Sequence record: PZ386974.1
Length of the DNA stretch: 64,000 bases
Direction: 5' to 3' (one strand)
Origin: a phage
Shown: piece after piece, positions 1-21,430 of the stretch
Numbering within the stretch: position 1 is the stretch's first letter
Layout of the letters: every line of letters starts with the position of its first letter
Notes under the pieces: generated by a model
What the model was told of the DNA's origin: nothing
The model's input: only the letters and a program-made list of their open reading frames with translations
Databases searched by the model: none
Translations under genes and position numbers: made by a program

Positions 1-390
1 TTCTTTTAGAAGAGCCGGTAATTGGGCCGCAATGCGAGGACCATAGAAAGTGTTGAAGTTCGCAGGCAAAGCATCTGATTTTGGTTTAGAAATAAATTTA
101 GCGACATTAGGATATGCTTTAAACGCTTCTTCTGCATCAGTACCACCAGAAATCATAAACTTCCAGAAGTCTTCGGCATATTCATAAGAGATGCGGTTAA
201 TACGTGGGTCGGTCATTTTGAATGATGATGGATTGTCAACAACTACTGTCATGGACCCGATTTCATTACAACGTCCAATACGAGAATTAGTTACGAATTC
301 GGGGTTTTCTAAAATTTCACGATTGACTGCTTTAAATGCGGTTTGAAAATCTGCGGCTTTGATATATTTCATTGTGTTATGTTTTCCCAT
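1..390 (-). CDS. hypothetical protein, N-terminal ~130 aa only; gene runs off the window start
   Basis: Open minus-strand frame from ATG at 390 (GAGGT SD 5 nt upstream) to position 1; not in ORF track because truncated. N-terminus MGKHNTMKYIKAADF... does not match my recollection of T4 gp42. Confidence 0.5.
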   Translation of the reverse strand, partial: MGKHNTMKYIKAADFQTAFKAVNREILENPEFVTNSRIGRCNEIGSMTVVVDNPSSFKMTDPRINRISYEYAEDFWKFMISGGTDAEEAFKAYPNVAKFISKPKSDALPANFNTFYGPRIAAQLPALLKE

Positions 391-432: not shown

Positions 433-672
433 TTATTTGAATTTCTTGGCAATGTTGATATAACGTAAAGCTTCAGAATCTATACTTCCAAGAACACTAT
501 GAAGGAATGCATCAGTGTAGTATTCCAATTGAACAGGTTCTTTAATCACTTTAGCCGCTTTGGTTTCAAACAGGCCCATAAGGGCCTTTTTAAGAATTTG
601 TTCGTTAGTGTTCAGTTTAATAGTCAAAATCTCTTCGTTAAGATTATAATTAAAAGTTTTTCTAGAAATCAT
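433..672 (-). CDS. hypothetical protein (79 aa)
   Basis: ORF tiling the minus-strand gene array; start overlaps stop of upstream gene (669/672). Confidence 0.45.
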   Translation of the reverse strand: MISRKTFNYNLNEEILTIKLNTNEQILKKALMGLFETKAAKVIKEPVQLEYYTDAFLHSVLGSIDSEALRYINIAKKFK

Positions 673-1838
673 TCCGGGTACCTCAAAGCGTCATCAGAGT
701 TAGTTATATCAATAATAGATATAGAGTTTTCTGCTAACCCGTTTTTAGATAATTGACGTTTATAATACCTTTCACAATATGTACACGTTGACCCACAGAT
801 TTCATTAGCACAATCAAAATCTGGATGTCTGAACCACCTTTTTTCTAAAAAGCCATCTAACAAAGAGGTTTCAATATTTACTGTATGTGAAAACTCAGTC
901 TCATTTTCAAGAGTGAAAATAGTCTCTAAAGGCTTCCACAGTTCTAACAAATTACCTTCAAACTTTTCAGAAGCGTATGCTTCAAGAACTTTCAAAATGT
1001 AGTCTGTGCTACCTGTACGTCCTGAAACTTTGAATTGAGTGATACCAATATCATTATAAAGTTTCAAATCTTGAGGACGAACAAAACGAGTTCTCAACCA
1101 ATTAAATGGGTCTGTATCACGAGCTTTAATACAGTGCTGCATTGGATATCCGTTTAAGGATTTAGCATCATCAGCTGTAACATCAGTACTATGGAAAATA
1201 TAGCAAGAGTCACGATAGCTACAATGTGTTGTATACCCTTTACCAGCATTAGAACAGAACTCGTTTACAAGAACTTCAAATATTATATTGTTCTTATTGC
1301 AAAACTCTGCTGCACGCTTCAGGAAAGAAACTGAACGGTTCTTATGAATTCCGCAACAGACCTTTTTGATGTTATATTGGTCATGCAAGTATTTGATTTG
1401 AGTTACAGCATCGACATGTAGAATTGTTGAAACTTCAATCTCAATATCTTTATTGACTTCACGAACAATTTCCATAACAACAGGGTTAGCGATAGTAATA
1501 CGCCATACGCCTATTGACCAAAGATACTGAACATAATCCTGAATAGCTTTCTTCTTCCACTCAACTAGTTCTCTTTTTGAACCAGGATTTATCGTGTTGA
1601 GTGTATAGTTAAAGCAAATACCTAATTCGTTACAACGTTTAACGTAATCTTCTAACATCTTTTTGTCAACGTCAGGAAGCCTAAAATCAGGTCTGGCTGC
1701 TACAAAAGCCATTTCTCTTGTAGAGCCGTATACTTCGTTTATCAAGCTATTAGGATAAGTTTTATTGAGCTCTACGATTTTATCAAGAAGAGCTAAATCA
1801 AAATTCGTTCCGATTTTAAAAGTATTCATTTTTTGCAT
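669..1838 (-). CDS. Cys-rich protein of unknown function (389 aa); candidate transferase or metal-binding enzyme of the sugar-nucleotide cassette
   Basis: Long ORF with many Cys including C-terminal C-x3-C-x2-C (CGSTCTYC); no family assignable by eye. Confidence 0.6.
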   Translation of the reverse strand: MQKMNTFKIGTNFDLALLDKIVELNKTYPNSLINEVYGSTREMAFVAARPDFRLPDVDKKMLEDYVKRCNELGICFNYTLNTINPGSKRELVEWKKKAIQDYVQYLWSIGVWRITIANPVVMEIVREVNKDIEIEVSTILHVDAVTQIKYLHDQYNIKKVCCGIHKNRSVSFLKRAAEFCNKNNIIFEVLVNEFCSNAGKGYTTHCSYRDSCYIFHSTDVTADDAKSLNGYPMQHCIKARDTDPFNWLRTRFVRPQDLKLYNDIGITQFKVSGRTGSTDYILKVLEAYASEKFEGNLLELWKPLETIFTLENETEFSHTVNIETSLLDGFLEKRWFRHPDFDCANEICGSTCTYCERYYKRQLSKNGLAENSISIIDITNSDDALRYPE

Positions 1839-3956: not shown

Positions 3957-4137
3957 GTTGAAGTCCTCATTGGTAAGTAGGAGTATTGTACACTATTCTA
4001 GTTAAAGCATTCATACTTTGCTTGTAGTCCAATCATAATCCATCCAATTACAAGTGTTGGAATCATTACTGGAGCCGTTAAGCTCCAGTAGATAGTCATG
4101 ACAAGCATCAATAGTAAAAGTCCTATTGTTATTGCTT

Positions 4138-4773
4138 TCATTGTTCGCCTCGTAACATGGCACCTAGTGCACCGCCTGGATGGAACTTAAGGAAGTCATT
4201 AGAGGTAAATCCACGCTCAGACGAAAGGTTGATAGCGAACGTATCGATAAGCGCTAACAACAATGTAGTGGACATAGTCGGAGCTAAAGAGTTCTCGTCA
4301 ACTTCTACCGCGATACCGGTACAGAACGTATAATCAAAAAGAGCTTCGTATTCTTGTGGAATGTCAGGGTTACAATGTAACAGAATCTGTTTAACCTGAG
4401 GACGAATCATACGAAGATGTTTAGCAACACCTATCATTTCTTCAGTCTTACCAGAACGACTGATGTGAACTAATACATCATTAGGTGCAATAAATCCTGC
4501 GTCACCATGAGAATAATGCCCGGTGTTCAAGTACATACTCGGGATACCGAGTGAAGCAAATGTCTCAGAAGCTTTAGTTGCAATATTAGCATTCTTACCA
4601 ACACCTGTAATAATTACTCGGCTTTCATAATTACTAAGTCCTGGGCGTCGAAGAGTTTCTAGAATAGCATTATAACGAGCAGGGTTTTGACTAATTACTT
4701 TGGCCATAGCGGCCAAAGAAGAAGCTTGTTTTATGATTGCGTCAATAGCGATAGTAATAGGAGTAGTTTTCAT
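4138..4773 (-). CDS. SIS-domain sugar-phosphate isomerase (arabinose-5-P isomerase / GmhA-like), 211 aa
   Basis: GVGKNANIATKASETF and VHISRSGKTEEM are classic SIS-domain motifs; no CBS domains. Confidence 0.7.
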   Translation of the reverse strand: MKTTPITIAIDAIIKQASSLAAMAKVISQNPARYNAILETLRRPGLSNYESRVIITGVGKNANIATKASETFASLGIPSMYLNTGHYSHGDAGFIAPNDVLVHISRSGKTEEMIGVAKHLRMIRPQVKQILLHCNPDIPQEYEALFDYTFCTGIAVEVDENSLAPTMSTTLLLALIDTFAINLSSERGFTSNDFLKFHPGGALGAMLRGEQ

Positions 4774-4813: not shown

Positions 4814-7525
4814 TCAAAAATCGAACATATCGAACAGAGATGCTTTCTTCTCGTAATCGAGTTTCGCTGCTGATGTGAATCCTTCAAGTGGTTTAATAAA
4901 TGTCTTCTCAAGGAGAACAGTGTAGTCCATCCAATGAAGTACGTCGTCTTTAATTAAATCTGTGATTTCAGTACCAGAAGGCCATGCGATACATTTATCA
5001 CCGAATGGGTTTCCTTCACGTAAAGGCAGAACATATACTTTTTCACCTTCTACAACTTGCGGCGCATCGATATTACCTTTGATAGCCCGGTTATACGTCA
5101 GAATTCCACGAATATGGAACGGGCATTTGGGACCAGGGAATCCACCGACGTCATATTTAGCAATGTTATTCGCAGAAGATACCGACGCGATGCTAATATA
5201 ATTCAATTGACGGAATTCTTTTTCAAACTCTTTAAAATATTCTTGTAATGATTCTTCACCTTCTTGAAGCATACGACGAATACATTCCTTAAGAGCTTTC
5301 TGTACTGCTTTAGGGGTCGAAGATTTCTGAGTCTCTAGACCCATGATTTTGAGTTTAGGCTCAGCGTATCTGGTTCCTTCCATATCCCACACGTTTAATG
5401 CATAACGTTTCTTACCAGTCCAAAATCCGCCAATACCTTTAGAACCAAGCGGAGGCCCAGCGATAGCTTCTCGGTCCATGAACATTAAGTGTTGTTTATT
5501 GTTCATGTATTCACACATTTCACGGAAACCTCTATCAATAGCAGGTTCCATACGTTCACGTGCAAACTTATCTAAGAAGTCTACCCAATGGTTGGTATCA
5601 CGGAATTTAGATTCACCAACCTTATCGATAATTTTATCAGCAGATACGTAAATAGAGTCTGTATCACCATAAAGAACGAAAGCTTCACCTTCTGTACCAC
5701 AAACTTCATTCAGATATTCATTAACTTTACGTTCAATCCACTGTAAAGCCATTTGCCCGAATGTTGTGATTGCAGTAGCATTACGCAAATCATAATAACG
5801 GAACCAAACGTTGCCAAGTGCACCATAAAGTGAGTTGATGAGCAATTTACGGTTAATTTGTGCAGTCATACCTGCAACTTCAGTACGTTGAGCTCTAAAC
5901 AACATTTCGTTAAGAGATTTAGCAGACAACTTTTTAATCTTTTCTTTAATCTCATCACTGAAGTCGAAACGATAATCAACATCTAATGGTTCGTCAACAG
6001 AAAGATTAGGATTATGCAATGCCTCTTTAATTATTTCACCATTGCGTTGAGCCGCAAGCATATAACCTTTGTGTTCTTTACGTTGATTAAAGACTTTAGT
6101 GATTTCAGTTGGAACAACACCGTCACGGTCTTTATAATACATCATGCCGTTAGGAGAACAACTGTACACATCAGAAGGACGTTCAGCAACAGCGTTAATA
6201 TAATCATGCAATGGAGCTACTTTAAACGTTCCTGCTATTGTTTCTGGGCTAATATTCACTTGGCGAATAATACTTGGATACAGAGATGTGAGGTCGAAGC
6301 TCATCACATATTTGTATCGATTTGGAATAGGTTCCTTAACAAAAGCGCCAGGATAAGGTTGAACCGGATGAGAACGACCTTGTGGAATCACCTTGTTCTG
6401 CTCTTTAAGGCTATTAAAAATAATAGCATCCCATGTTTTAATTGGGCTAAACACAGATTGAATCTGTATCTTAGCATAATAACCCATGTCCAAGCTCAAG
6501 TTAATGAACTGACGTTTACCATCAATTTGCAATACACGATACACGTCGATAATGTTATAAGAAATATATCGTTGGTGATTGCTTTCACGAAGCTTAGAAA
6601 TAGGGCCGTCATATTTCAGTTTACCAACGTTCAATTCAAATTCTGAAATGTAATCCAGAGAATACGACGGTTGATTGGTAAAAGAGAATTTTTTGTAAAG
6701 GTCAATGTAATCAAGAACAGAGATACCGAACAATGTAATGATTTCACGAGAACCATACATGTTTTCGATAACTTTAACACGAGTTTTACGATGTGGTGAT
6801 AAACGTTTCGCAGTAGATTCGCCAAAAATATTCTTGATTCGGTTATACACATATGGAATATCAAATGACTCAACGTTCCATCCAGTCAAAATGACAGGAG
6901 TTTTCTGTTGCCAGAAGTTGAGATATTCCATCAACAATTCTTTTTCATTATCGAACGGCATATAAATGATTTTATCGATAATTTCGGATGGAACTTCATC
7001 ACCACCTTGTTCTTGAAGCTTAGCCGCAATTTCGATAGACCATTCTTCCACATTACCGTATGGAGAATTCAAAAGGTCAAATACGTAGAACCTGTCGTCA
7101 ATTGAGTCATAATGGGTGATAGCATCAATCGGATGTTTTGCTTGTGACGGCTCAGGGAACCCGTCCGGAGATGTTACTTCGATGTCGAAGTTAGCCACAC
7201 GAATTTTTGTATGGTCGTATTTGATTTCATAGTTATAAGTGTCAGACAAATACGCCAATTTGAAATCGTCCATGCCAAGTGCTTCAAGTCCGATATCTTC
7301 CATGCGTTTAATCCATTGGGAGGCATCACGCATATTAGCGAACAACTTACGAGTACACGGCTTACCGTAGATATCGAAATATTTCGTAGCCTGACTTTCT
7401 GGACAATGAGCAAACAGTGATGGTTTATATTCTACTTCACGAGTACGTTCACGGCCATTAGAATCGATGTAACGTTCAAAAATTGAATCACCAATCTGTT
7501 CAACCGTTAAGTAAAATTCTTTCAT
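4814..7525 (-). CDS. 43: DNA polymerase (family B), T4 gp43
   Basis: 903 aa; N-terminus MKEFY...ERYID..G.ERTREVEY and YGDTDS motif; co-linear with T4 gp43. Confidence 0.95.
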   Translation of the reverse strand: MKEFYLTVEQIGDSIFERYIDSNGRERTREVEYKPSLFAHCPESQATKYFDIYGKPCTRKLFANMRDASQWIKRMEDIGLEALGMDDFKLAYLSDTYNYEIKYDHTKIRVANFDIEVTSPDGFPEPSQAKHPIDAITHYDSIDDRFYVFDLLNSPYGNVEEWSIEIAAKLQEQGGDEVPSEIIDKIIYMPFDNEKELLMEYLNFWQQKTPVILTGWNVESFDIPYVYNRIKNIFGESTAKRLSPHRKTRVKVIENMYGSREIITLFGISVLDYIDLYKKFSFTNQPSYSLDYISEFELNVGKLKYDGPISKLRESNHQRYISYNIIDVYRVLQIDGKRQFINLSLDMGYYAKIQIQSVFSPIKTWDAIIFNSLKEQNKVIPQGRSHPVQPYPGAFVKEPIPNRYKYVMSFDLTSLYPSIIRQVNISPETIAGTFKVAPLHDYINAVAERPSDVYSCSPNGMMYYKDRDGVVPTEITKVFNQRKEHKGYMLAAQRNGEIIKEALHNPNLSVDEPLDVDYRFDFSDEIKEKIKKLSAKSLNEMLFRAQRTEVAGMTAQINRKLLINSLYGALGNVWFRYYDLRNATAITTFGQMALQWIERKVNEYLNEVCGTEGEAFVLYGDTDSIYVSADKIIDKVGESKFRDTNHWVDFLDKFARERMEPAIDRGFREMCEYMNNKQHLMFMDREAIAGPPLGSKGIGGFWTGKKRYALNVWDMEGTRYAEPKLKIMGLETQKSSTPKAVQKALKECIRRMLQEGEESLQEYFKEFEKEFRQLNYISIASVSSANNIAKYDVGGFPGPKCPFHIRGILTYNRAIKGNIDAPQVVEGEKVYVLPLREGNPFGDKCIAWPSGTEITDLIKDDVLHWMDYTVLLEKTFIKPLEGFTSAAKLDYEKKASLFDMFDF

Positions 7526-19145: not shown

Positions 19146-19616
19146 TTAATCATGTTTCCACACCCCATCGGTATTTGACCAAAGTCGCTGATTATCTGAT
19201 CCTCGCCACAGCTTTTTAGTCGGAAGATTTTTCTCATACTTCCCATCAATAATAACATCAACATATTTAAGCATTTCTAGTTGTTTAATATCTTCAAACT
19301 TATATCCTGTCCACAACCAAATGCTTTTATTGGGATAAAGATTTTTTACTGTTTGAACAATGCGATGAATAACATCTCGGTTATCAGGATAGAGAGGGTC
19401 TCCTCCGGTTATAGTTAATCCTTCTATATAATCATTATTCAAACATTCAATTAATTGTTCTAGTGTCTCTCCAGTGAATGGAACACCGTTTCTAGCATTC
19501 CATGTTGATTTATTATAACACCCTTCGCATTTATGCAAACAACCTGTGACGAAAAGAACGACCCTGCAACCAGGGCCATTCACAAAATCGCAAGGATAAA
19601 ATCTATCATAATTCAT
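19146..19616 (-). CDS. nrdG: anaerobic ribonucleotide reductase activating protein NrdG (radical SAM)
   Basis: Cys cluster CRVVLFVTGCLHKCEGCYN; 156 aa; adjacent to nrdD. Confidence 0.9.
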   Translation of the reverse strand: MNYDRFYPCDFVNGPGCRVVLFVTGCLHKCEGCYNKSTWNARNGVPFTGETLEQLIECLNNDYIEGLTITGGDPLYPDNRDVIHRIVQTVKNLYPNKSIWLWTGYKFEDIKQLEMLKYVDVIIDGKYEKNLPTKKLWRGSDNQRLWSNTDGVWKHD

Positions 19617-21430
19617 TGGTGTTTAACCCTATGCATGATTTCTTTATTTTTGCCTAGATTAAATCCGCGTTCGTTCGGGTTTCCAAGATAACCACACGTT
19701 CTTCTTATTGTGTTCATCTTTTTAGGATCAGTTTCTCCACAAATAGAACAAACAAATCCGTTTTCAGTAGGAGTCATTTCATGGGTACTTCCACACGTAA
19801 AACATTTATCTACTGGCATATTAACACCAAAATAATCTAAATGTTGTGCAGCATAATCCCAGACAGCCTCAAGTCCCTTTAAATTGTTTTTCATATCTGG
19901 AAGTTCAACATAAGAAATGTGACCACCTGACGCAATGAAATGATATGGCGCTTCACGAGAAATCTTTTCAAACGGAGTAATATTTTCTTCTACTGAAACA
20001 TGGAAACTATTAGTGTACCAGCCTTTATCAGTGACATCCTTTACACTTCCATATTTTTCCGTGTCGAGTTTACAGAAACGATAACACAAGTTTTCAGCAG
20101 GAGTAGAATACAAGCTAAAAGCAAAACCGGTTCTTTCGGTCCACTGTTTAAGATGAGTATTCATTTTAGTTAAAATTTCTTGTCCAATATCACGACCGAC
20201 AAGAATATTCAATTCGTGAATACCAATGTATCCTAGGGACACTGAACTTCTACCGTTTTTAAATAACTCAATTATATCGTCATCAGGTTTAAGACGGACC
20301 CCGAATGCACCTTCTTGGTAAAGAATAGGAGCAACAGTCGCTTTAACCCCTTTTAAGGAACTAATTCTACACATCAAAGCTTCAAAACACAAATCCATTC
20401 GTTCATCGAACAATTCGGCAAATTTCTGTTCATTGAACTGTGTTCCAATATAAGAATCTAATGCGATACGAGGAAGATTCAGTGTTACAACACCGAGATT
20501 ATTACGTCCATCAAGAATTTCATTACCGGTCGAATCTTTCCATACGCTCAAGAAACTACGGCAACCCATTGGAGAAACAGGAACTGAAGAACCGGTAATA
20601 GCTTTATTATTCTTAACCGAAATAATATCAGGATACATTCTTTTGCTTGCGCACTCTAGAGCAAGCTGCTTAATATCATAGTTCGGATCATCTTTATAAA
20701 GATTAACACCTTCTTCAACAAACATAACAAGCTTAGGGAAAATAGGAGTTATTCCATCACGACCAAGACCTTTAATGCGGTTTTTAAGAATTGCCTTCTG
20801 AATCATTCGTTCAGTCCAATCGGTTCCCGTACCAAATGTAATTGTTACAAAAGGCGTTTGTCCGTTTGAACTAAAGAGAGTATTTACTTCATATTCATAA
20901 GCTTGGAATGCGTCATAGACATCTTTTTCTGTTTTGGATTGAGCATAATTCAACGCATCAGCGATTTGCCATTTTTCTGCATCTTCAATATGTTTTGCAT
21001 AGGTGCGTTTAACATAAGGAGAAAGTACTTTATCTACATTAGCAAAAGTCGTTCCGCCATACTGGTGAGAAGCAACTTGTGCGGTAATTTGTGCCATAAT
21101 TGCAGTAGCAACGCCAATAGATTTAGGCGTTTCAATTTGAGCATTGCCTAATTTAAATCCATTCTCAAGCATCCCATTTAAATCGACTAAACAGCAATTA
21201 GTAAATGGAAGAGCAGGAGAATAATCAATATCATGCATGTGAATGATTCCGCTTTCATGCGCATTCATAATAAAAGACGGGACCATATTTTTGGCAATGT
21301 GCTTAGACACAATACCAGCCATAAGGTCCCGTTGAGTTGGAAAAACACGAGAATCTTTATTAGCATTCTCGTTTAAAAGGTCTTTATTAGTTTTATGAAT
21401 TAATCCTTCAATTTCTTTTTCAATTTTCAT
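19613..21430 (-). CDS. nrdD: anaerobic ribonucleoside-triphosphate reductase NrdD (uninterrupted)
   Basis: 605 aa; C-terminal glycyl-radical motif RRTCGYLG and Zn-ribbon CFTCGS...CSICG. Confidence 0.95.
   Translation of the reverse strand: MKIEKEIEGLIHKTNKDLLNENANKDSRVFPTQRDLMAGIVSKHIAKNMVPSFIMNAHESGIIHMHDIDYSPALPFTNCCLVDLNGMLENGFKLGNAQIETPKSIGVATAIMAQITAQVASHQYGGTTFANVDKVLSPYVKRTYAKHIEDAEKWQIADALNYAQSKTEKDVYDAFQAYEYEVNTLFSSNGQTPFVTITFGTGTDWTERMIQKAILKNRIKGLGRDGITPIFPKLVMFVEEGVNLYKDDPNYDIKQLALECASKRMYPDIISVKNNKAITGSSVPVSPMGCRSFLSVWKDSTGNEILDGRNNLGVVTLNLPRIALDSYIGTQFNEQKFAELFDERMDLCFEALMCRISSLKGVKATVAPILYQEGAFGVRLKPDDDIIELFKNGRSSVSLGYIGIHELNILVGRDIGQEILTKMNTHLKQWTERTGFAFSLYSTPAENLCYRFCKLDTEKYGSVKDVTDKGWYTNSFHVSVEENITPFEKISREAPYHFIASGGHISYVELPDMKNNLKGLEAVWDYAAQHLDYFGVNMPVDKCFTCGSTHEMTPTENGFVCSICGETDPKKMNTIRRTCGYLGNPNERGFNLGKNKEIMHRVKHQ

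Follow-up and report, generated by a model that had tools for sequence, protein, structure and literature searches.

A candidate oxygen-independent cytosine hydroxylase of the U32 family in the DNA-modification cassette of an RB69-group phage

Introduction

What does the cysteine-rich protein encoded among the DNA-modification genes of RB69-group phages do? The DNA that we analysed (the window) is a 64,000-nucleotide stretch of a phage genome, sequence record PZ386974.1, and the gene in question is a 389-amino-acid (aa) open reading frame (ORF) at 669-1838 on the minus strand with an ATG start; position and length are as a first-pass annotation had given them. That annotation took the product for an orphan enzyme of a sugar cassette. 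We find that it belongs to the U32 protein family, that homologous genes repeatedly adjoin genes for prephenate synthesis, and that outside the T4-like phages the gene occupies a position otherwise held by a cytosine hydroxylase. We propose that the U32 protein is probably a prephenate-dependent, O2-independent hydroxylase of cytosine C5.

Over its first 5 kb the window shares 98.6% identity with Escherichia phage PhAPEC2 and 97-98% with a large number of further Mosigvirus genomes, which identifies it as Mosigvirus, of the RB69 group of T-even-like phages. RB69 DNA contains mono- and di-arabinosyl-5-hydroxycytosine and not arabinosyl-5-hydroxymethylcytosine (hmC) (Lee et al., NAR 2026, PMC13326640), so that the hmC-DNA acceptor assumed in the first-pass annotation does not apply to RB69 and its relatives. 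According to the same study, the ThyA homolog gp48 makes 5-hydroxy-dCMP as a mononucleotide, with oxygen that comes from 18O2 and a loosely bound flavin; UDP-arabinofuranose is made by an isomerase, a bifunctional kinase/pyrophosphorylase and a HAD phosphatase; and the transferases are assigned to gp46:47 and gp3 (PMC13326640). The RB69 counterpart of our protein, RB69p050, appears there in Table 1 only, as 'Sugar or heterocycle reductase' with structural match 5d88. The Discussion of that paper names the pathways of RlhA and TrhP as pyrimidine hydroxylations of an unrelated kind, and the words U32, chorismate, prephenate and anoxic are all absent from its text.

The U32 family is known from three Escherichia coli systems. 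RlhA is needed for 5-hydroxycytidine (ho5C) 2501 in 23S rRNA, for which prephenate and Fe-S assembly are required (PMC5727448); TrhP is needed for the prephenate-dependent formation of 5-hydroxyuridine (ho5U) 34 in tRNA, beside the O2-dependent TrhO (PMC6599085); and UbiU-UbiV carry out the hydroxylation steps of ubiquinone without O2, the oxygen being donated by prephenate (PMC10990095). The well-characterised members are thus all needed for O2-independent hydroxylation of aromatic or pyrimidine carbons, and all require prephenate (PMC5727448, PMC6599085, PMC10990095). Two of the three systems hydroxylate pyrimidine C5, which is the chemistry that this phage needs. The phage gene itself is already known and is usually annotated as a peptidase; a full-text literature search, outside which He et al. 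2026 and Mahler et al. 2025 fell, returned no paper joining U32, chorismate mutase or prephenate with these phages, and the hydroxylase reading is unpublished as far as we could check.

Results

Family and fold

Conservation identifies the ORF as a real gene and not a chance reading frame. RB69ORF050c is 99.2% identical to its product, 222 phage genome records carry the gene at 80% identity or more, a 90%-clustered protein database holds 282 homologs at E<=1e-3, and a 50%-clustered database holds 1653 representative relatives, 447 of them at E<=1e-30. With these hundreds of homologs and with matches to Pfam Peptidase_U32 and to phrog_5757, a phage family of the PHROGs database labelled 'peptidase', the protein is no orphan. 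It is also the best-conserved protein of its cassette: against Klebsiella phage Marfa it keeps 89% identity, whereas the kinase/pyrophosphorylase keeps 43%. The gene has two in-frame ATGs, M1 and M4 (the second at 1829), the latter with a GAG some 9 nt before it. MNTFK is the N-terminus of most homologs, so M4 may be the true start, which would give a protein of 386 aa and make the annotated start three codons too long.

The Pfam match (PF01136, Peptidase_U32) covers residues 97-289 with 42.2 bits against a cut-off of 22.4 (E=7e-11), and homologs of the protein carry PF01136 as well. The first-pass annotation had recommended structure prediction with a fold search, and this returned a confident result: an AlphaFold2 model built with 21 homologs is a TIM barrel (pLDDT 88.8, pTM 0.89) whose best Foldseek match in the PDB is 5d88, the U32 protein Mk0906 (E=2.4e-7, TM 0.62 on the target). 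The matches that follow are generic TIM barrels, with TIM-barrel reductases (MetF) next-best. A sequence search of the PDB gave no match, and an NCBIfam scan gave a sub-threshold match to UbiU only. A family profile of 128 sequences aligned by hhalign with RlhA (5.5e-12), TrhP (1.1e-11), UbiU (8e-7) and UbiV (6e-3), resolving the weak results for UbiU, UbiV and TrhP that single-sequence hhalign with a shallow 21-sequence profile had given; family-to-family alignment with the RlhA U32-domain profile reached a probability of 98.4% (E=8e-15). We regard membership of the U32 family as practically certain on these alignments, which point to RlhA and TrhP as the nearest E. coli relatives. The protein has no Pfam match to PF12392 (DUF3656), whereas RlhA homologs carry that domain; a U32 domain alone, followed by a short Cys-rich tail, makes it a separate, phage-borne subfamily and not RlhA proper.

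Two other enzyme classes were considered and rejected. A canonical radical-SAM enzyme had been doubted in the first-pass annotation, and rightly so, as there is no PF04055 (Radical_SAM) match at E<=0.1 and the C-terminal CX3CX2C is the tail of a four-Cys CX4CX3CX2C site. The same annotation's suggestion of a transferase using the nucleoside diphosphate (NDP)-sugar fails: no glycosyltransferase (GT) family was found in Pfam or NCBIfam and no GT among the top 50 fold matches, and the transferases of the cassette are separate genes, RB69 gp46:47 and gp3 (PMC13326640). A homolog of RB69 gp46:47 lies next to the cassette as a gene of its own.

Conserved motifs

Three motifs were located within the gene, each on the minus strand:

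1119..1262, minus strand: U32 core motif E193-F-C195...C206-x5-C212...C236-x3-R240 (residues 193-240), a predicted [4Fe-4S] site, from conservation and the RlhA alignment
1017..1031, minus strand: K270-V-S-G273-R274, counterpart of K-I-E-G-R in RlhA, TrhP and UbiU, from alignment
774..812, minus strand: four-Cys site C343-x4-C348-x3-C352-x2-C355, a predicted second metal or Fe-S site, 94-96% conserved

Both cysteine patterns noted at first pass are present, namely C161-C162-x17-C180-x14-C195-x10-C206-x5-C212 and C348-x3-C352-x2-C355, the latter preceded by C343. Their conservation, taken from 128 representative homologs of 23-49% identity, is uneven. C195, C206 and C236 are kept in 99-100% (C206 in 100%, C195 in 99%), position 212 is Cys in 59% and His in 40%, and C343, C348, C352 and C355 are kept in 94-96%; C161, C162 and C180 are kept in 56%, 1% and 14%, respectively. 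Distant relatives thus conserve eight of the 13 cysteines (C195, C206, C212 as Cys or His, C236, C343, C348, C352 and C355). The description 'conserved-looking' holds for C195, C206, C212 (Cys/His), C348, C352 and C355 but not for C161, C162 and C180; on this alignment the CC pair and C180 are specific to the lineage of the window.

In RlhA, C169 and C176 are essential and E161A keeps trace activity only, and the C-terminal C580 and C611 are essential as well (PMC5727448). E193, C206 and C212 of the phage protein align with RlhA E161, C169 and C176, and C236 aligns with RlhA C192. Similarly, K270, G273 and R274 align with the FKIEGR of RlhA and TrhP; K270 and R274 are 100% conserved, and E193 is 72% conserved. 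The phage protein therefore has the E...C-x6-C core and the KIEGR motif of the prephenate-dependent U32 proteins, with a spacing of x5 and not x6. Three positions of the canonical CX6CX15CX3/4C map (C206, C212, C236) and the fourth Cys is R240, as in UbiU; C195 is a likely candidate to substitute for this fourth ligand. The C-terminal Cys group of RlhA comprises residues 572, 580, 611 and 614.

Genes for prephenate synthesis

At least 25 phage loci place a gene for chorismate mutase and/or 3-deoxy-D-arabino-heptulosonate-7-phosphate (DAHP) synthase next to U32. Chorismate mutase makes prephenate, and DAHP synthase leads toward it. Unless the U32 enzyme uses prephenate, it is difficult to see why a phage would keep a chorismate mutase gene directly beside U32. 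In most T4-like genera a chorismate-mutase domain query matched the small ORF directly 3' of U32, and Pfam CM_2 scored above threshold in all ten of the small ORFs tested (35.9-55 bits against 27). A census by hidden Markov model (HMM) found chorismate mutase adjoining U32 in 13 of 16 T4-like IMG/VR loci and in ten non-T4 loci; a CM_2 ORF directly follows U32 in those 13 and in loci L049, L051, L053, L054, L056 and L062. The phage proteins show no variation at the chorismate-mutase ligand residues R11, R28, K39, S84 and Q88 (E. coli PheA numbering).

DAHP synthase occurs in two arrangements. In L009 and L030 the next gene after U32, starting 9-65 nt from it, encodes a type-I-beta enzyme (E=2.6e-70 and 2.2e-65; KDO8P synthase models match far less well). 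In L042, L044/L045 and L047 a fusion of DAHP synthase with chorismate mutase is encoded some 0.6 kb upstream of U32. These genes look like shikimate-pathway auxiliary metabolic genes of uncultivated phages. Their coordinates are:

L009:11145-11891: DAHP synthase
L030:9384-10130: DAHP synthase
L042:8411-9433: DAHP synthase, chorismate mutase-fused
L044:9-971: DAHP synthase, chorismate mutase-fused
L047:8332-9387: DAHP synthase, chorismate mutase-fused

U32 loci outside the T4-like phages

U32 homologs at 40-58% identity are abundant in metagenomes, and the loci that we fetched all look like phage DNA, containing genes such as those for DnaE-type polymerases, SSB, holin and terminase. In every T4-like locus a ThyA-family gene adjoins U32 (HMM scores of 380-450 bits). 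Across about 38 non-T4 loci, mostly viewed within +-10 kb, the same HMM gave one match, of 71 bits, in L032; this gene (5491-6357) is on a contig of 230 kb and precedes U32 by about 3.6 kb. No match was found on an essentially complete contig of 43,970 bp, assembled from three fetches, which carries the order Tmk - GT1 - U32 - TAGT-like - GLF.

What accompanies U32 in place of ThyA is consistent. A homolog of the ThyA-adjacent GT (RB69 gp46:47 type) lies 0-4.6 kb from U32 in about 27 non-T4 loci, often overlapping the U32 start codon, and the GTs near non-T4 U32 genes match this type only, over the full length. Thymidylate-kinase-like, dUTPase/MazG or dCMP deaminase genes usually adjoin U32 in these loci. 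In position, the non-T4 U32 gene thus corresponds to the ThyA homolog of T4-like phages. The sugar genes vary: about 17 non-T4 loci have arabinose-type genes (isomerase and AfhE-like), L013, L033 and L038 have UDP-galactopyranose mutase, and U32 occurs with UDP-galactopyranose mutase or without any sugar-activation gene in L010, L013, L014, L037, L043, L046 and L058. The linkage of U32 is independent of the sugar and constant near nucleotide-metabolism genes and the first-GT (GT1) family, which speaks for a role on the base and not on the sugar. The first-pass idea of a 'metal-dependent tailoring enzyme' stands in so far as the sequence predicts a metal-cluster-type enzyme of a DNA-modification cassette, and it comes nearer the mark than a structural protein would.

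Several of these loci have features of their own. Directly 3' of U32, L013 (11098-12000) and L038 (11086-11979) encode a TAGT-like protein, a weak match to the Tet-associated glycosyltransferase (TAGT) family, with UDP-galactopyranose mutase about 4 kb downstream; this suggests that the DNA of these phages contains galactofuranosylated hydroxypyrimidine. In one group of phages with DnaE-type polymerases, including a 466-kb contig, three genes near U32 replace the GT1 family: a radical-SAM/SPASM gene, a gene for a conserved protein of about 400 aa whose N-terminal part weakly matches a GT, and one for a conserved protein of about 250 aa with a weak epimerase-like match (coordinates of the replacing genes: L002:1-1454, L014:7980-9011, L015:2681-4839, L002:9175-9939, L003:9080-9826 and L015:11089-11832). 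This trio may be a different downstream decoration. In L003 (648-2786) and L015 (5391-9986) the DnaE-type polymerase carries a fused N-terminal domain of the uracil-DNA-glycosylase (UDG) family, and L009 has two separate UDG-family genes.

Distribution among T4-like phages

The listed carriers of U32, the 222 records at 80% identity or more, all infect Enterobacterales or Shewanella. The sugar-activation gene is found in 369 phage records, 57 of them from Acinetobacter phages; the organism names listed for U32 do not include Acinetobacter. We found no U32 gene in the clusters of AM101 (Acinetobacter) and PspYZU05 (Pseudomonas), which run isomerase - kinase/pyrophosphorylase - phosphatase - ThyA homolog - GT - kinase, nor in the cassette of the E. 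coli Dhakavirus VR5. These three cassettes indicate that T4-like phages carry U32 as an insertion that separates the ThyA homolog from the sugar block. The hosts of the Acinetobacter and Pseudomonas phages are aerobes. Among T4-like phages the U32 gene was thus seen only in those of facultative anaerobes, yet not in all of those.

The cassette in the window

The cassette genes of the window share one strand, and near them lie genes for a T4-type DNA polymerase, RegA and the clamp loader. The cassette genes are listed here together with two genes of anaerobic ribonucleotide reduction located elsewhere in the window:

1..390, minus strand: ThyA-homolog 5-hydroxy-dCMP synthase, RB69 gp48 ortholog; first 130 codons, the window edge truncating the rest
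433..672, minus strand: 79-aa ORF, RB69 gp49 ortholog; phrog_8601 only, no Pfam family, no cysteines
669..1838, minus strand: U32-family gene, RB69 gp50 (RB69ORF050c) ortholog; 389 aa, ATG start, Pfam PF01136
1885..2286, minus strand: HAD-type phosphatase, counterpart of AfhF / RB69 gp51 (annotations; PMC13326640)
2271..3956, minus strand: bifunctional nucleotidyltransferase and kinase, counterpart of AfhE / RB69 gp52:53 (Pfam NTP_transferase, weak kinase-family matches; PMC13326640)
4138..4773, minus strand: SIS-domain arabinose-5-phosphate isomerase, RB69 gp55 ortholog (Pfam SIS, annotations; PMC13326640)
19146-19616, minus strand: NrdG, radical-SAM activase
19613-21430, minus strand: NrdD, anaerobic ribonucleotide reductase, 605 aa

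The same order is found, on one strand, in the curated record of Bas47 (phage AlbertHofmann): dCMP hydroxymethylase homolog, small ORF, U32 gene, phosphatase, nucleotidyltransferase/kinase, small ORF, phosphosugar isomerase, DNA polymerase. The counterpart of RB69 gp48 is labelled 'dCMP hydroxymethylase' in that record. Between the isomerase and kinase/pyrophosphorylase genes of the window lies a small ORF (4011-4163, minus strand, 50 aa, GTG start), whose Bas47 counterpart is a hypothetical protein of about 47 aa. The U32 gene is separated by 46 nt from the upstream HAD gene, and the ATG of the 79-aa ORF overlaps its stop codon by 4 nt. Co-transcription with the sugar-activation genes, asserted at first pass, is plausible from this layout, but promoter- and terminator-like sites are no commoner than in shuffled sequence.

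The 79-aa ORF diverges much faster than U32 (86-97% identity within Mosigvirus, 31-41% in Yersinia and Serratia phages). It was detected in Mosigvirus and a few other genera and not in most U32-bearing genera; this poor conservation led us to reject it as an obligate U32 partner. Its homolog adjoins a true chorismate mutase gene in L018, L025, L027 and L031, and it has no match to the chorismate-mutase HMM itself, so that it was rejected as a chorismate mutase too.

The presence of nrdD and nrdG indicates a phage equipped for anaerobic DNA-precursor synthesis and is a precedent for its carrying an oxygen-sensitive enzyme for anaerobic growth. Acinetobacter is absent from the ten commonest organism names among NrdD homologs, the tenth of which has 41 records.

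Discussion

How could a U32 protein serve the modification of phage DNA? From the family membership, the motif conservation, the gene linkages and the scarcity of ThyA genes in non-T4 loci described above we infer Fe-S binding, prephenate use, substrate and product, and an anaerobic role. Prephenate-dependent hydroxylation as such we consider likely; the full mechanism, O2-independent hydroxylation of cytosine at C5, we hold with less assurance, as the probable one. The phage dCTPase and the dCMP pool would supply dCMP, which the U32 enzyme would bind together with prephenate. The substrate ring would lose two electrons to the Fe-S cluster or clusters, after the scheme proposed for UbiU-V (PMC10990095), and prephenate would decarboxylate to phenylpyruvate, its hydroxyl being delivered to C5. 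The resulting 5-hydroxy-dCMP would pass to the dNMP kinase, the polymerase and the arabinosyltransferases as the precursor of the arabinosyl-5-hydroxycytosine that replaces C in the phage DNA. An O2-independent enzyme would be needed because the known hydroxylase takes its oxygen from O2 (PMC13326640), and the U32 enzyme would thus be the anaerobic counterpart of its O2- and flavin-dependent neighbour, the ThyA homolog.

A number of points weigh against this proposal. No U32 protein has been reconstituted in vitro as a hydroxylase, assays of this kind being still awaited (PMC10990095), and the characterised systems act on RNA polymers or a lipid, so that action on a mononucleotide would be without precedent. 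The cysteines are not spaced as in the canonical CX6CX15CX3C, and RlhA has no equivalent of the candidate ligand C195. RB69 gp48 and its kinase suffice for aerobic 5-hydroxydeoxycytidine (5hodC), and the adjacent GT as first transferase onto 5-hydroxycytosine is a hypothesis in the same study (PMC13326640). In the T4-like phage chorismate mutases D48 is changed to N and R51 to I, V or L (the other set has changes at D48 and E52), and the D48N and R51 changes make activity uncertain in the T4-like enzymes. We found neither chorismate mutase nor DAHP synthase in the window, and Mosigvirus and Marfa lack a chorismate mutase gene; the prephenate link accordingly rests on orthologs from other genera, and this phage would rely on host PheA/TyrA. 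E. coli Dhakaviruses such as VR5, which lack U32, indicate that the gene is not essential for modification in enteric hosts. Outside the T4-like phages, the L032 gene means that U32 and ThyA are not strictly exclusive, and the scarcity of ThyA there was mostly gauged within +-10 kb of U32.

Which other activities would fit? The same prephenate-dependent C5 hydroxylation might act after replication, on cytosine in DNA, as would be in keeping with the nucleic-acid polymers on which RlhA and TrhP act (PMC5727448, PMC6599085) and with the TAGT-like DNA glycosyltransferase gene that follows U32 in L013 and L038. We consider this unlikely, since T-even-type replacement of C takes place at the nucleotide level, 5hodCMP being made as the mononucleotide (PMC13326640), and since the dNMP kinase, dUTPase/MazG or dCMP deaminase genes that adjoin U32 in most non-T4 loci fit a precursor-level step. 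A role in the sugar pathway, either as an NDP-pentose oxidoreductase or as the transferase itself, would match the label in Table 1 of PMC13326640, the position of the gene between the sugar-activation and base genes, the AfhE-like and SIS genes near U32 in about 17 distant phage loci, and the MetF-type reductases among the next-best fold matches. It is nonetheless improbable: the route from ribulose-5-phosphate needs no redox step, AfhE and AfhF alone convert arabinose-5-phosphate to UDP-arabinofuranose, as PMC13326640 relates the findings of He et al., no GT domain or fold was found in the protein, U32 also travels with UDP-galactopyranose mutase or with no sugar-activation gene, and the linkage to chorismate mutase and DAHP synthase would be left unexplained.

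Since RlhA and TrhP are its nearest E. coli paralogs, the protein could alternatively hydroxylate host or phage RNA, at tRNA U34 or 23S C2501, and so tune translation during infection. Against this likewise improbable role stand the missing DUF3656 region of RlhA and C-terminal regions of TrhP, the host's own RlhA and TrhP, and the location of U32 within DNA-precursor and DNA-glycosylation modules in every lineage examined, where it overlaps the GT1 gene in several phages. That the U32 and ThyA-homolog genes are adjacent in T4-like phages, that the U32 protein has two putative redox clusters and that the ThyA homolog uses a loosely bound flavin (PMC13326640) could all be read as signs of an electron-transfer or flavin-reducing partner of the ThyA-homolog hydroxylase. 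We reject this reading, to which we give a very slight chance, because each gene occurs without the other: U32 without a ThyA-family gene in many phages, mostly viewed within +-10 kb but including the near-complete genome, and the ThyA homolog without U32 in Acinetobacter, Pseudomonas and Dhakavirus phages; moreover, gp48 works in E. coli without gp50 (PMC13326640). Finally, most GenBank records make the protein a 'peptidase' or 'collagenase-like protease', after the historical name of the family. This is scarcely credible, as U32 proteins have no known means of catalysing proteolysis (PMC5727448) and the gene context is nucleotide and DNA modification throughout.

If the U32 protein is the hydroxylase that we propose, it would explain full replacement of C in oxygen-free habitats such as the gut despite an O2-requiring hydroxylase, and it would bear on the use of Mosigvirus-type phages in therapy. 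Prephenate-dependent hydroxylation would extend from RNA and ubiquinone to DNA precursors and to viruses, and the phage chorismate mutase and DAHP synthase would be auxiliary metabolic genes serving DNA modification. A single chain of 389 aa with a probable mononucleotide substrate would also be an attractive model for this chemistry. U32 together with the first-GT family and without ThyA could serve as a marker for glycosylated hydroxypyrimidine DNA in uncultivated phages. A wider proposal, which we advance tentatively and whose chances we put just short of even, is that virus-borne U32 proteins form a widespread class of prephenate-dependent hydroxylases acting on free pyrimidine deoxynucleotides. 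They would be the sole route to 5-hydroxypyrimidine DNA in many uncultivated phages, whose own chorismate mutase or DAHP synthase would channel the aromatic-amino-acid metabolism of the host towards hypermodified DNA, and would allow enteric T-even relatives to replicate their fully C-substituted genomes in the anoxic gut. Given a small soluble substrate, such an enzyme would be the first of the U32 family to lend itself readily to reconstitution in vitro.

The closest known system is RlhA (YdcP), which resembles the phage protein in its U32 domain, the core Glu and two Cys, the KxxGR motif and an extra C-terminal Cys cluster, and whose product, 5-hydroxycytosine, is the predicted product of the phage enzyme. 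RlhA differs in its length (653 aa against 389 aa), in the DUF3656 that it alone contains, in its Cys spacing (C-x6-C-x15-C-x3-C, against C-x10-C-x5-C/H-x23-C in the phage protein) and in its rRNA substrate, in place of the deoxynucleotide or DNA proposed for the virus-encoded protein. UbiU shares with the phage protein the C-x3-R after the third Cys, its fourth ligand coming from elsewhere in the chain; UbiU-UbiV differ in their lipid substrate, in forming a heterodimer that needs UbiT and in their weaker similarity (8e-7 and 6e-3). TET/JBP dioxygenases and TAGT of phages are like the U32 and TAGT-like pair in that a DNA pyrimidine is hydroxylated and then glycosylated, but TET enzymes depend on O2, Fe(II) and 2-oxoglutarate, and their substrate is 5-methylcytosine in DNA. 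The ThyA-homolog synthases (RB69 gp48, DLP3 gp80 and the HY126 enzyme) share with the U32 protein the proposed product, the gene cluster and the adjoining GT family; they have an unrelated fold, use flavin and O2, and occur in phages of aerobes, where U32 was not found. Two unrelated enzymes for one product, one of them O2-dependent, have their parallel in the TrhP (YegQ)/TrhO pair, which the phage U32 protein and ThyA homolog would match, although TrhP targets a tRNA uridine, has C-terminal domains absent from the phage protein and keeps the canonical four-Cys motif. Similarly, the UbiI-H-F and UbiU-V enzymes of E. coli form a pair like the one that we propose for the ThyA homolog and the U32 protein.

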